In this document: one piece after another, positions 9,476 to 64,000 of the stretch
How the letters are laid out: the number at the start of each line of letters is the position of its first letter
Position numbering within the stretch: the first letter of the stretch is position 1
From: Elainellaceae cyanobacterium
GTDB lineage: Bacteria; Cyanobacteriota; Cyanobacteriia; CAZCXK01
Length of the DNA stretch: 64,000 nucleotides
NCBI GenBank assembly: GCA_051117555.1
Contig: JBNPEG010000084.1
Location: 1-64,000 of the forward strand
Reading direction: 5' to 3'
Position numbers and translations under genes: made by a program
The notes under the pieces: generated by a model
Seen by the model: the letters and a program-made list of their open reading frames with translations, nothing else
What the model was told of the DNA's origin: nothing
Database searches by the model: none

Positions 9476-10225
9476 TTATTCAATTCTGACTTCTCCAATA
9501 AGCGGAGCATCTGGAATCTGAGTCAGTCCTACATCTGACCGTTGTAAAGCTGTTTGCCAATCCATTTTGAGAGCAGTATTATTAGGGGTCATGAGCCGAA
9601 GATTGGCTAACTGGGCGATCGCGTCATACCAAATTCCTTGTAGCAGTGCTTGGCTAGTACGGGGAGATGCATTACTTAGCTGATCATTCAGATCAGAAGA
9701 CATCGCTAACCGTTGCACCCAACCATTCACGTCTACGTAGGTTGGCTCATCAGGGTCACAATACAGCTCAAAATACCAGCGATAGAATTGGCCCATATTT
9801 AGTTCAGGAACAGACTCTGGAAGAGTAAAGCTTACATATCCCGGTACCTGTTCAGGTAGAGTGAAGTCGATGGGGGCAATCGCTTCACTTCCAGTTTCAT
9901 CGTACAACACAAATTTTCCTACTGGGATCTGCTCCTGAGAATAGGGTACATAAAACCAAAAAGTTGGGTGTCCTAACAAGGTATTTCCTACATTAGATTG
10001 AGGCATTAATGCGGTTAGCGGATAGGCAACGGATGGACAATCTCCACGTGCGTCAGTAGCACTTTGCTCTCCCGGACGACTTTCTGAACCTTGTCGGTCA
10101 GATTTGGCGTATATCAAGTGTAATGATTTATGTGAGTTTGCAAGGGCTAGGGTTGAAATCATCGAGAGCGATATGATCAATCCAAAAAACAGTATTGGCT
10201 TCGTTTTCTTCATCAAACTATTCAT
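9476..10225 (-). CDS. DUF928 family secreted protein
   Basis: Signal peptide; ARGDC...LTALMP...HPTFWFYVPY...YRWYF...GIWYDAI. Confidence 0.88.
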   Translation of the reverse strand: MNSLMKKTKPILFFGLIISLSMISTLALANSHKSLHLIYAKSDRQGSESRPGEQSATDARGDCPSVAYPLTALMPQSNVGNTLLGHPTFWFYVPYSQEQIPVGKFVLYDETGSEAIAPIDFTLPEQVPGYVSFTLPESVPELNMGQFYRWYFELYCDPDEPTYVDVNGWVQRLAMSSDLNDQLSNASPRTSQALLQGIWYDAIAQLANLRLMTPNNTALKMDWQTALQRSDVGLTQIPDAPLIGEVRIE

Positions 10226-10261
10226 TCTTGCTACCTCAGTAAAAATATTCGGTCGATTTAA

Positions 10262-62480: not shown

Positions 62481-62529
62481 TGTCTATGCTTTGACTACAC
62501 TTCAACCGACCACTTTACAAGGAAAAACC

Positions 62530-64000
62530 ATGCGTTCTAATCATTTCGTCTCAAATTCTTTCGTTTATGGAGCACTACTATCTACTTTTGCCGCCGTTCT
62601 GGCCTCCACCATGTTTGGACTGATTTCCACAAAAGCCAATGCCAACGGAGCGATCGCCCCGACACGCAGTGCAGGTGCTGCTACTGAGGAAGGCGTTCAG
62701 CTCAGCCCTATTGAACAAGAGATTTTAGAAGAACATGACAGTCTTATCGAAATGGGGCGAGAACTAGCTGAACTACAACGCATCCCAACTGGCGATCGCA
62801 CCCCAGAGCAAGAGACAAGAATGGCAGAACTGCTTCAAGCACAACAGCAGATTAGAGAAGCATTTCAGGAATTTCTTGCACGTCCGGATGTAGAAGCCAC
62901 CATTGCCCAGTTGAGACAGTCTCAGAGACAACAAACCCTTGACCTTCGCTCTATTGAGGCATTGCAAGACAACCTGAGACAGCTCGAACAAGAGGCAGTA
63001 TTGCTGTATCCGCTTATTCTAGAAGATCGGCTTGAACTGGTTTTACTGACTGCTGATGCTCCTCCAATTCGTCGCTCTATTAATGTGAGTCAAACAGAAC
63101 TCAATCAAACAGTTTTAGAATTTCGTCAGGCACTACAAAATCCACGTAGTAACCCCCAAACTTCAGCCCAGCAGCTTTATAACTGGCTCATTCAACCTTT
63201 TGAAAATGAACTAGAAGCAGCCGATGCTGACGCAATTCTCTATGCTCCAGATGGTGTTTTGCGTTATGTTCCCCTCGCCGCACTTCACACAGGCGAGCAG
63301 TGGTTGGTGGAAAATTACATCGTGAATACCATTACGGCTGCGTCTCTCACCGATTTTGGTCAATCTCCCCAGCAGCCACCACGGGTTTTAGCGGCTGCAC
63401 ACACTGAAGGGAGCTTTGAAGTTACAGTAGGCGATCGCTCATTGCAGCTATCAGGCTTCCAATTTGCAGCTCCAGAAGTCGAAGCGATCGCTGAGTTGAT
63501 GCCCGACACAACCGTACTTCTTAACGACGAATTCACTCCTGATAACCTATTCCTTCAAATGAATGATTACACCATTGTTCATATTGCTGCGAATGTTTGG
63601 ATTGTCCCTAGTGGCCCAGATGATTCATTTATTTTGTTCGGTAATGGCGATCGCGTCTCGTTGTCAGACATGCGGAATTGGAATCTCAGCAACGTAGATT
63701 TGCTGGTGTTGAGTGCGTGTGAGACTGGAGTGGGCGAGACATTGGGCAGTGGAGACGAAATCCTTGGCTTTGGTTACACAGTGCAACGAGCAGGGGCACG
63801 AGCGGCAATCGCCCCGCTGTGGCAGGTCGATGATTTTGGCACCAAAGAGTTGATGGTGGCGTTTTATCGATCGCTTCAGCAAGGGCAAAGTTATGCAGAA
63901 GCGCTGCGGCAAGCTCAACTTTCACTCATTACATTTGAATCAATGCCTGCACCTCGACAGCTCAAAGGAATAGAAGTTGGGGCACCTGTTGAGGCACCTG
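62530..64000 (+). CDS. Secreted TPR-less CHAT protein with catalytic His replaced by Asn; runs off the window end and is missing from the ORF track
   Basis: Hand translation: MRSNHFVS...LLYPLILEDRLELV...YAPDGVLRYVPLAALH...IVHIAANVW...LSACETG...LRQAQL. Confidence 0.88.
   Translation, partial: MRSNHFVSNSFVYGALLSTFAAVLASTMFGLISTKANANGAIAPTRSAGAATEEGVQLSPIEQEILEEHDSLIEMGRELAELQRIPTGDRTPEQETRMAELLQAQQQIREAFQEFLARPDVEATIAQLRQSQRQQTLDLRSIEALQDNLRQLEQEAVLLYPLILEDRLELVLLTADAPPIRRSINVSQTELNQTVLEFRQALQNPRSNPQTSAQQLYNWLIQPFENELEAADADAILYAPDGVLRYVPLAALHTGEQWLVENYIVNTITAASLTDFGQSPQQPPRVLAAAHTEGSFEVTVGDRSLQLSGFQFAAPEVEAIAELMPDTTVLLNDEFTPDNLFLQMNDYTIVHIAANVWIVPSGPDDSFILFGNGDRVSLSDMRNWNLSNVDLLVLSACETGVGETLGSGDEILGFGYTVQRAGARAAIAPLWQVDDFGTKELMVAFYRSLQQGQSYAEALRQAQLSLITFESMPAPRQLKGIEVGAPVEAP

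Follow-up and report, generated by a model that had tools for sequence, protein, structure and literature searches.

HetF is a cyanobacterial CHAT protease in which the CHAT domain is cytoplasmic and the TPR domain periplasmic, and, according to the accessible part of the report describing it, it cuts PatU3 between R117 and S118, with a Tyr preceding the Arg, while the R117A, R117D and R117H variants of PatU3 withstand cleavage (PMC9457339). PatU3 is likely the anti-sigma factor of HetZ, as stated in excerpts of another report (PMC13342950). A study by Kaur, Iyer, Burroughs and Aravind (eLife 2021; PMC8195603, excerpts) described caspase proteins that combine a constant EACC2 module with variable sensors such as CHASE2, whose genes adjoin those of a sigma factor of the extracytoplasmic function (ECF) type and of a DUF1822 protein, and proposed stimulus-induced activation of the peptidase. 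Additionally, it was reported that a second protease is cut and switched on by SAVED-CHAT and goes on to cleave several proteins, one of them sigma-factor-like (bioRxiv 10.1101/2023.06.23.546230, excerpts), and that DdvA, a periplasmic TPR-CHAT anti-sigma factor, is proposed to cut its own linker (PMC11506125, excerpts). Here, a 64-kb stretch (the window) is considered, which is the beginning of a 90.9-kb contig (JBNPEG010000084.1) in the 6.06-Mb genome of an Elainellaceae cyanobacterium (GCA_051117555.1), and in which genes for CHAT proteins lie among those of S1 and S8 serine proteases and of DUF928 and DUF1822 proteins. An earlier note on this DNA had pointed to Arg-Gly and Arg-Ser motifs recurring in the linkers and loops of these proteins, and had proposed an Arg-specific proteolytic cascade in which the CHATs activate themselves or each other and mature the co-regulated proteases and ligands. 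The observation was confirmed, and its reading as Arg-specific processing is plausible from the sequence comparisons presented below.

All 18 motif strings listed in the earlier note were found in the proteins named. As raw dipeptides, they are at chance level, which is a first point against the proposal: R[GS] occurs 184 times in the 31 open reading frames (ORFs) of the window (18,355 amino acids), compared with 169.9 ± 11.0 in within-protein shuffles, and RG occurs 81 times, compared with 81.5. Therefore, the question becomes one of the positional conservation of the particular arginines. It was verified that every cited Arg falls on an Arg column kept in 62–100% of homologues, where the following residue is mostly Gly, Ser or Ala and the flanks are often variable or indel-rich. 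Thus, the expectation set beforehand, that the Arg would be conserved far above background where its flanks vary, was borne out by the homologue alignments.

The earlier note had itself cautioned that some sites might merely reflect the highly iterated palindrome HIP1 (GCGATCGC), which, depending on the frame, can be translated as Asp-Arg or Arg-Ser, and a by-product of HIP1 and chance is an explanation of the recurrence that has to be weighed. In the window, 123 copies of HIP1 are present; they underlie the codons of 40 of the 57 Gly-Asp-Arg tripeptides, most of which belong to TPR repeats, and R[GS] is at the shuffled level. However, HIP1 overlaps just three of the 18 cited Arg codons, namely Arg914, Arg990 and Arg311 of the proteins starting at 41802, 49992 and 36952, respectively (proteins are designated hereafter by the lower coordinate of their genes, Table 1), and the other 15 are clear of it. 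In addition, the Arg is kept in homologues from many other genomes, which refutes chance and HIP1 as a full explanation, and the Gly-Asp-Arg of TPR repeats was also found, by alignment, in animal TPR proteins of the same type. This explanation is therefore considered very improbable.

The association of a conserved Arg with a small residue was evaluated on the 476 columns conserved at ≥80% in five family alignments, 24 of which are Arg columns, in tests that treat related sequences as independent and were devised after seeing the data, and whose outcome is thus indicative only. A next column dominated by Gly, Ser or Ala was found for 7 of the 24 Arg columns versus 63 of the 452 others (p 0.048), whereas a small next residue combined with a variable downstream stretch was found for 5 of 24 versus 7 of 452 (Fisher p 1.3e-4). 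Isolated conserved columns in variable surroundings numbered 13, three of them being Arg (p 0.023); all three are cited sites, corresponding to the CHAT loop and to R68 and R91 of the S8 protein.

In the S1 protease, Pfam Trypsin and Trypsin_2 were recognized with scores of 43.9 and 39.2 bits, and H134, D187 and S266, which are assigned to the catalytic triad by motif, are invariant in 61 sequences of the family. The string GGRG stands here immediately before IISNDDR, and its Arg, Arg82, occupies a column that is Arg in 119 of 119 homologues, followed by Gly (69), Ala (31) or Val (16) and then by [VI]-I-G-x-D-[DN]-R. When the profile of the 61 family members was compared with the 215-residue mature chain of a glutamyl endopeptidase, 1p3c, residue 2 of that chain was aligned with the second residue after the Arg; therefore, residue 1 of 1p3c corresponds to the residue directly after it. 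The remark of the earlier note that this segment is zymogen-like thus gains support from the homology of the boundary, where the Arg would stand at P1, and Arg82 is presumed to be the P1 residue of the pro/mature junction. In glutamyl endopeptidases, the new N-terminus forms part of the substrate pocket. The S1 family was detected at E ≤1e-40 in 23 of 201 sampled genomes of the class, and 20 loci were taken from 17 other genomes. A CHAT ORF was present in 16 of the 20, in 15 of them on the same strand and within 300 nucleotides (nt), some overlapping by ~10 nt; of the four loci devoid of one, at least one is cut by a contig end.

The S8 subtilase scored 153.2 bits on PF00082, and its D320, H440 and S627 are invariant in 89 sequences. 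Its strings STRG, TTRA and GTRG contain Arg68, Arg91 and Arg123, each placed after Thr or Ser in an indel-rich stretch rich in Gly and Ser, as verified in 119 homologues. R68 is kept in 117 of 118 homologues (next residue Gly in 71, Ser in 37), R91 in 118 of 118 (Gly 61, Ser 38) and R123 in 70 of 112 (Ser 53, Gly 17). The S8 gene lies 102 nt downstream of the 30332 TPR-CHAT gene, on the same strand. The family was present in 13 of the 201 sampled genomes, and among the 12 loci taken from other genomes, nine carry TPR-CHAT ORFs, several of them directly adjacent. A fourth site, absent from the earlier note, was also observed, formed by R291 (101 of 119 homologues) and G292 (96 of 119), five residues ahead of an invariant R-T-D with which the catalytic domain begins. 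At residue 147, where the window protein has Leu, 93 of the 119 homologues have a further Arg, before a gappy loop.

The eight CHAT ORFs of the window scored 176–295 bits on PF12770 (cut-off 24). In an alignment of 70 sequences (A2), the catalytic His and Cys are kept, H383, H387 and C431 being invariant, which supports the assignment to the clan CD caspase-like proteases. An Asp (D475 in the numbering of the modelled part) is likewise invariant within an S-L-W-x-V-x-D motif and is a possible candidate for the acidic S1 pocket that cutting after Arg would require. Two regions of these proteins carry the cited arginines. The C-terminal one is a loop inserted between the last helix and the last strand, as seen in the 19 CHAT paralogues of the genome, seven of which carry R-G-[IV]-x-[IVL]-E and one K-G-I-E-V, while three have a long loop devoid of the motif and eight have no loop. 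A search with residues 395–951 of the 41802 protein yielded 74,918 cluster representatives at E ≤0.001, of which the best 150 were aligned. The loop Arg column is Arg in 100 of 120 occupied rows, with an entropy of 1.07 bits compared with 2.5–3.7 bits for neighbouring loop columns, and is followed by Gly (61), Ala (24) or Ser (13). Since an aligner can pull arginines together, an alignment-free test was also made, in which 148 of the 150 sequences had both anchors and 123 had loops of ≥20 residues. R[GAS] was found in 101 of these 123 long loops, compared with 63.8 ± 4.8 after shuffling (maximum 78 in 500 shuffles), and R[GAS] followed by alternating hydrophobic residues in 81 of 123, compared with 16.6 ± 3.6; the loop arginines peak 10 and 11 residues past the last helix (53 and 35 occurrences).

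The second region holds the strings YTRS, DVRG, GVRG, YTRG and DVRG, which were located in the five TPR-CHATs whose loops were cited and which the earlier note had placed at the TPR-CHAT junction. Their Arg is indeed conserved, and it lies in a helical linker ~160 residues ahead of the Pfam CHAT domain, the junction label being provisional. The columns of this site are Val in 122 of 147, Arg in 106 of 147 (in addition to Gln in 20 and Lys in 6) and Gly in 92 of 149 sequences, and 126 of 150 have Arg or Lys in either of a pair of neighbouring columns; the CHATs that partner S1 in one genus have I-K-G at this position. Residues 395–951 of the 41802 protein were modelled with AlphaFold2 (mean predicted local distance difference test, pLDDT, 85.6; predicted template modelling score 0.79), and the linker site was predicted in a loop between two helices, with mean pLDDT values of 51, 61 and 55 in the three 10-residue blocks covering it. 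Likewise, pLDDT falls below 50 at modelled residues 519–521, corresponding to G912-D913-R914 and thus including the conserved loop Arg, although a low pLDDT is not proof of disorder. Foldseek matched the model with the TPR-CHAT Csx29 (7e-12), DdvA (2.9e-8), separase (2e-6), gingipain R (2.6e-5) and SAVED-CHAT, in agreement with a predicted caspase-hemoglobinase fold joined to a helical/TPR domain. By sequence, a PDB search with a single CHAT domain returned no match, and one with the A2 profile was swamped by TPR proteins. In the 62464 paralogue, Lys replaces the loop Arg (QLKGIEV), and Asn replaces the second His of the catalytic-region motif, that is, the H387 present in all 70 aligned relatives; this paralogue may be an inactive copy.

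In the DUF928 protein, the Arg of the DARG string (Arg60) belongs to G-R-P-G-x-R-x-G-G-G-S-R-[GST]-x-C. Among the 120 homologues in which it was searched, it is Arg in 103 of 110, followed by Gly (49), Ser (32) or Thr (11), and one residue further by a Cys that is invariant (110 of 110). The ISRG string belongs to the divergent 40764 protein, which has no Pfam match, and a hidden Markov model (HMM) of the family aligns its SRG...C, with Arg85, to the same motif.

The DUF1822 genes belong to cassettes composed of genes for a sigma-like protein, a DUF1822 protein, a CHAT-CHASE2 membrane receptor and a DUF928 protein, of which the window holds two, extending from 13611 down to 9476 on the minus strand and from 35428 to 41597 on the plus strand. 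The gene order of the first one recurs at two further loci of the genome, whose four DUF1822 paralogues are all found in cassettes and all carry a hydrophobic residue followed by Arg-Ser. In the 12625 protein, the FRS string (Arg199) closes an L-A-F-S-F-R-S motif directly before a variable, gap-rich linker, and the MRS string of the 36952 protein (Arg311) aligns to the same column. Across 80 loci from other genomes, the site is Phe in 63, Arg in 79 and Ser in 46, and the linker that follows has 36–56 gaps per column; past the linker, a second, semi-conserved R-[GAC]-K was found, with Arg in 63 of the 80. A small sigma-like ORF precedes DUF1822 in the three copies checked, the first window cassette and two outside the window. 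The sigma-like 13611 protein had weak matches only, with a SigK-type NCBIfam model (E 2e-4) and with Sigma70_r4_2 (E 0.012). The 502-amino-acid (aa) 35428 protein, in the place expected for a sigma factor in the second cassette, matched no Pfam or NCBIfam family, and a homologue of it stands beside a DUF1822 gene in another genome. His230 and Cys273 of the 10262 CHAT-CHASE2 protein are kept in 64 ORFs that lie downstream in DUF1822 loci, and this protein is a candidate protease for the adjoining DUF1822. Its residue 67 is Arg in 98% of 64 relatives of the N-terminal module, at the end of the first domain and followed by a variable stretch, with no small residue after it; this Arg might mark the border of a domain or be one more site of processing.

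A simple hydrophobicity scan revealed N-terminal hydrophobic, signal-peptide-like segments in the TPR-CHATs and in the S1, S8 and DUF928 proteins, and none, by the same kind of scan, in the DUF1822 and sigma-like proteins or at the N-terminus of CHAT-CHASE2. Since they are devoid of such a segment, the DUF1822 and sigma-like proteins are likely cytoplasmic, as is the CHAT module of CHAT-CHASE2, because it precedes the first membrane segment. The proteins are thus likely split over two compartments, exported and cytoplasmic, by an export assignment that relies on this hydrophobicity heuristic. The idea of Arg-specific processing contained in the earlier note draws support from the conservation of the Arg, the S1 boundary, the adjacency of S1 and S8 genes to TPR-CHAT genes and the HetF precedent, but its single connected cascade is unlikely, with components on both sides.

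We infer cleavage itself, the CHAT domain as the enzyme and the direction of activation, and propose two modules. In the exported one, each TPR-CHAT gene forms an operon-like pair with the gene of a serine protease, S1 or S8, that would be made as a precursor, where the invariant Arg and the small residue after it would mark the removal of an N-terminal extension; for S1, a cut after the Arg would yield an N-terminus matching that of its solved mature relative. The Arg or Lys sites of the TPR-CHATs themselves, predicted in two flexible loops, one within the helical linker and the other immediately ahead of the final strand, would serve auto- or cross-processing, as in the autocleavage of separase. 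The Arg of DUF928 would be a further site, closing a Gly-rich motif shortly after the predicted signal peptide. In the cytoplasmic module, the CHAT of CHAT-CHASE2 would cut DUF1822 after the near-invariant Phe-Arg, at the start of the variable linker, and this cut may alter the activity of the neighbouring sigma-like protein, comparable to HetF cutting the anti-sigma PatU3 after Arg in Tyr-Arg-Ser. It is probable that at least some of the cited sites are cut after Arg, and there is a little less than an even chance, judging from the analysis as a whole, that CHAT proteases are the enzymes. The complete two-module model centred on CHAT, with Arg as P1, is more doubtful and is put forward tentatively. 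In its most general form, equally tentative, filamentous cyanobacteria would possess an extracytoplasmic, caspase-like zymogen cascade, in which TPR-CHATs would activate S1 and S8 at one invariant Arg and trim themselves and the DUF928 ligand at corresponding Arg sites, along with a cytoplasmic system in which CHAT-CHASE2 would free a dedicated sigma factor by cutting DUF1822 between the Arg and Ser of Phe-Arg-Ser. DUF1822 would then represent a general class of anti-sigma substrates, with HetF-PatU3 as its one studied example.

It was also considered that the cuts after Arg are real and the enzyme is not a CHAT, the cutting being done by the S1 or S8 protease encoded alongside or by an envelope protease of another kind, in which case the TPR-CHATs would be substrates or scaffolds and the proposed direction would be reversed or removed. 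The conservation and adjacency data suit such an enzyme equally well; basic sites also occur in the TPR-CHATs, within loops modelled at low confidence, and the S1 partners of one genus keep a linker Lys-Gly that any basic-specific protease could use. On the other hand, the closest solved relative of the S1 family is a glutamyl endopeptidase, giving no hint of Arg specificity, and when subtilases free themselves of their propeptide, they usually cut at residues that are not basic. Moreover, in the accessible literature, a cleavage site has been mapped for a single cyanobacterial member of these families, a CHAT cutting after Arg (HetF, PMC9457339). A protease other than CHAT is regarded as a rather improbable source of the cuts.

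Several observations weigh against the processing model, and some of them favour motifs that remain uncut and act as structural or recognition elements, with a separate role in each family, for instance as part of a salt bridge or of a loop mimicking a substrate in CHAT, as a peptide bound by TPRs, or as a Gly-rich motif for export or anchoring in DUF928. Longer conserved motifs enclose several of the sites (the Gly-rich motif of DUF928, N-P-x-E-G-x-R in S1 and Q-E-L-D-D-Y-L-x-x-V-R-G, which contains the linker R-G), and such motifs could be binding or folding elements. A conserved Arg is common in itself, given that 17 of the 24 Arg columns among the 476 lack a small next residue, and the enrichment of Arg followed by a small residue is weak when taken alone (p 0.048). 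Furthermore, many relatives do without the C-terminal loop site: the loop is shorter than 20 residues in 25 of 148, R[GAS] is absent from 22 of the 123 long loops, and the S1-partner CHATs of one genus have loops of six residues. Because homologues are related, their counts are not independent events. The earlier note had assigned the S8 arginines to a propeptide, and the conserved Arg sites stood while a recognized inhibitor-type propeptide did not, since the N-terminal region (~310 residues; 25–310 scanned) had no Pfam match at a threshold as loose as E 5; the term propeptide is thus provisional. Csx29, in turn, cuts after residues that are not basic, and a specificity for Arg is therefore not uniform among CHATs. 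Nevertheless, uncut motifs do not easily account for the CHAT loop and for R68 and R91 of S8, in which an isolated Arg in a variable, indel-rich stretch is hard to explain by folding, for the S1 Arg exactly at the mature-enzyme boundary and the DUF1822 Arg exactly at the start of the variable linker, or for the recurrence of Arg followed by Gly, Ser or Ala in six unrelated, co-encoded families. That the motifs are left uncut is judged unlikely.

A further point against the processing model concerns DUF1822 as a relative of PatU, for which homology was not shown in profile or genome searches. PF08852 gave nine matches in two heterocyst-former genomes, which have 2 and 6 DUF1822 genes, and the one extra copy inspected was another cassette and not PatU; in the one of these genomes that was looked into, all DUF1822 proteins were of the cassette type. 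A degenerate DNA pattern of the published 8-residue PatU3 site was at chance level (5 matches each, controls 0 and 5), with the best-looking match lying inside an unrelated 221-aa ORF, and the 502-aa cassette protein, used as a query for a PatU link, recovered just another cassette. Elsewhere in the genome (G000:C227:60932-64900), a gene for a HetF-like CHAT-FHA protease is followed by that of a 217-aa protein, which is present in 101 of the 201 sampled genomes and carries an A-R-P-x-A-x-A-M-R-[GDS] motif with Arg in 29 of 29; the residues after this Arg resemble the published PatU3 site. As a DUF1822 homologue, the 217-aa protein was rejected, the profile comparison probabilities being just 0.15% and 0.9%. 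The family-profile run (0.9%) superposed its motif on the L-A-F-S-F-R-S of DUF1822, over the motif region alone, and the single-sequence run aligned an unrelated N-terminal stretch, so the likeness is a short-motif resemblance, not homology.

The features discussed are listed in Table 1. By Pfam, the window encodes eight CHAT proteins, seven with TPR repeats and one TPR-less, in addition to one S8 subtilase, one S1 protease and one TPS exoprotein. CHAT ORFs number 19 in the genome, the contig of the window carrying 13, and all three of its S1 genes lie among CHAT genes on this contig. The island extends past the window to ~84 kb, over a part that adds four CHAT ORFs and two S1 genes, each of the latter beside a CHAT gene. 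A genome of the same genus, 99% complete, has neither the S1 nor the S8 family at the thresholds used, and the island is therefore accessory. At 3277-9369, a gene for a TPS-domain exoprotein (1126 aa) is directly followed by a TPR-CHAT gene. Additionally, 19021-20901 and 26044-27681 encode paralogues of 626 and 545 aa that share a conserved C-terminal half and matched no Pfam family; the pair sits between genes for PPC-domain proteins and an M48 peptidase gene.

Table 1. Genes of the window under discussion, with the positions of the arginines cited in the text (residue, nt)
Feature	Coordinates	Strand	Basis	Sites
TPR-CHAT	6667		Pfam
DUF928 protein, predicted exported	9476..10225	-	PF06051 159.3 bits	Arg60, nt 10046-10048
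CHAT-CHASE2 membrane receptor, N-terminal CHAT module	10262..12604	-	Pfam CHASE2 201.6, CHAT 46.7 bits
DUF1822 protein, likely cytoplasmic	12625..13581	-	PF08852 240.8 bits	Arg199, nt 12985-12987
Small sigma-like protein heading first cassette	13611..14270	-	weak matches
S8 subtilase, 724 aa, predicted exported	28055..30229	-	Pfam Peptidase_S8, residues 312-662	Arg68, nt 30026-30028; Arg91, nt 29957-29959; Arg123, nt 29861-29863; Arg291, nt 29357-29359
TPR-CHAT, 1085 aa, predicted exported	30332..33589	-	Pfam	linker Arg584, nt 31838-31840; loop Arg1042, nt 30464-30466 (DDRGIAIE at residue 1040)
502-aa protein heading second cassette, in expected sigma-factor place	35428..36936	+
Second, longer DUF1822 protein	36952..38286	+	PF08852 134.6 bits	Arg311, nt 37882-37884
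Second CHAT-CHASE2 receptor	38295..40754	+	Pfam CHASE2 50.3, CHAT 30.6 bits
Divergent DUF928-like protein	40764..41597	+	family HMM built in this analysis, E 1e-15	Arg85, nt 41016-41018
TPR-CHAT, 951 aa, predicted exported	41802..44657	+	Pfam CHAT 197.8 bits and TPR families	linker Arg473, nt 43218-43220; loop Arg914, nt 44541-44543 (GDRGVAVE at residue 912)
TPR-CHAT	45139		Pfam
TPR-CHAT, 1027 aa, predicted exported	49992..53075	+	Pfam	linker Arg554, nt 51651-51653; loop Arg990, nt 52959-52961 (GDRGIEVE at residue 988)
TPR-CHAT, 1096 aa, predicted exported, immediately upstream of S1 gene	55442..58732	+	Pfam	linker Arg602, nt 57245-57247; loop Arg1054, nt 58601-58603 (TNRGIELE at residue 1052)
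S1 serine protease, glutamyl-endopeptidase-like, 318 aa, predicted exported	58797..59753	+	Pfam Trypsin, Trypsin_2	Arg82, nt 59040-59042
TPR-CHAT, 892 aa, predicted exported, immediately downstream of S1 gene	59802..62480	+	Pfam	linker Arg419, nt 61056-61058; loop Arg851, nt 62352-62354 (SERGIQIE at residue 849)
TPR-less CHAT paralogue	62464..64000 (exits window; ORF end 64068 on contig)	+	Pfam

To our knowledge, no function has been established for either DUF928 or DUF1822, and the cassette of sigma factor, DUF1822 and CHAT has been described by computer analysis only. A literature search (supplements not covered) found no publication on DUF928, on pairs of exported TPR-CHAT and S1 proteins, or on the cleavage of DUF1822. 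TPR-CHATs of the type found here are very numerous, with 5,103 cluster representatives at E ≤1e-30 in the search described above, and the exact candidate cut sites make the DUF928, DUF1822 and TPR-CHAT families testable systems. If the proposal were true, the principle of HetF and PatU3, so far a single developmental switch, would hold for signalling of a widespread design, and bacteria would have an extracellular cascade with activation of a serine protease by a cysteine protease.

When compared with described proteases, separase and gingipain R match the window CHAT in fold at 10–12% sequence identity. Both separase and the Arg-gingipain, which belong to clan CD, cut after Arg, and autocleavage of separase takes place in the loop that joins the helical to the protease part. 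The best structural matches of the window TPR-CHAT are Craspase Csx29 and DdvA, which differ from it in that Csx29 is guided by a CRISPR complex, whereas DdvA is fused to an anti-sigma domain and lacks three active-site helices. For the S1 protease, the S1B glutamyl endopeptidase 1p3c is alike in that the family aligns from residue 2 of its mature chain onward, and the window protein differs in the invariant Arg before the boundary and in the pairing of its gene with a CHAT protease gene. The system of SAVED-CHAT and PCaspase, from the Haliangium type III-B CRISPR locus, resembles the proposed exported module as a bacterial protease cascade started by a CHAT; however, in the available part of its description, it is cytoplasmic, driven by cyclic oligoadenylate and directed to a second protease of the cysteine type, whereas the partners in the window are predicted exported serine proteases.

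The EACC2 systems share the neighbourhood of the window cassettes, with a caspase-like protein bearing a CHASE2-type sensor, a DUF1822 protein and a sigma factor, the latter represented in the window by weak matches. The excerpts of that account (PMC8195603) mention neither a cleavage site nor DUF928 nor a connection with exported pairs of TPR-CHAT and S1 or S8, and the Arg sites are the addition of the present analysis to this picture. Finally, in HetF-PatU3 of Anabaena sp. PCC 7120, as far as the available text describes it, a membrane CHAT protein cuts a small regulator of an ECF-type sigma factor after the Arg of an aromatic-Arg-Ser sequence, and the window cassettes follow a similar logic, with a sigma-like gene, a DUF1822 gene encoding F-R-S and then a CHAT-CHASE2 membrane protein. 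The window CHAT-CHASE2 scored 22 bits on the NCBIfam HetF model (cut-off 1200), so it is not a HetF equivalog, and the genome has its own separate HetF-like genes. Unlike in HetF-PatU3, the genes of the window are adjacent and the outside domain is CHASE2 rather than TPR.

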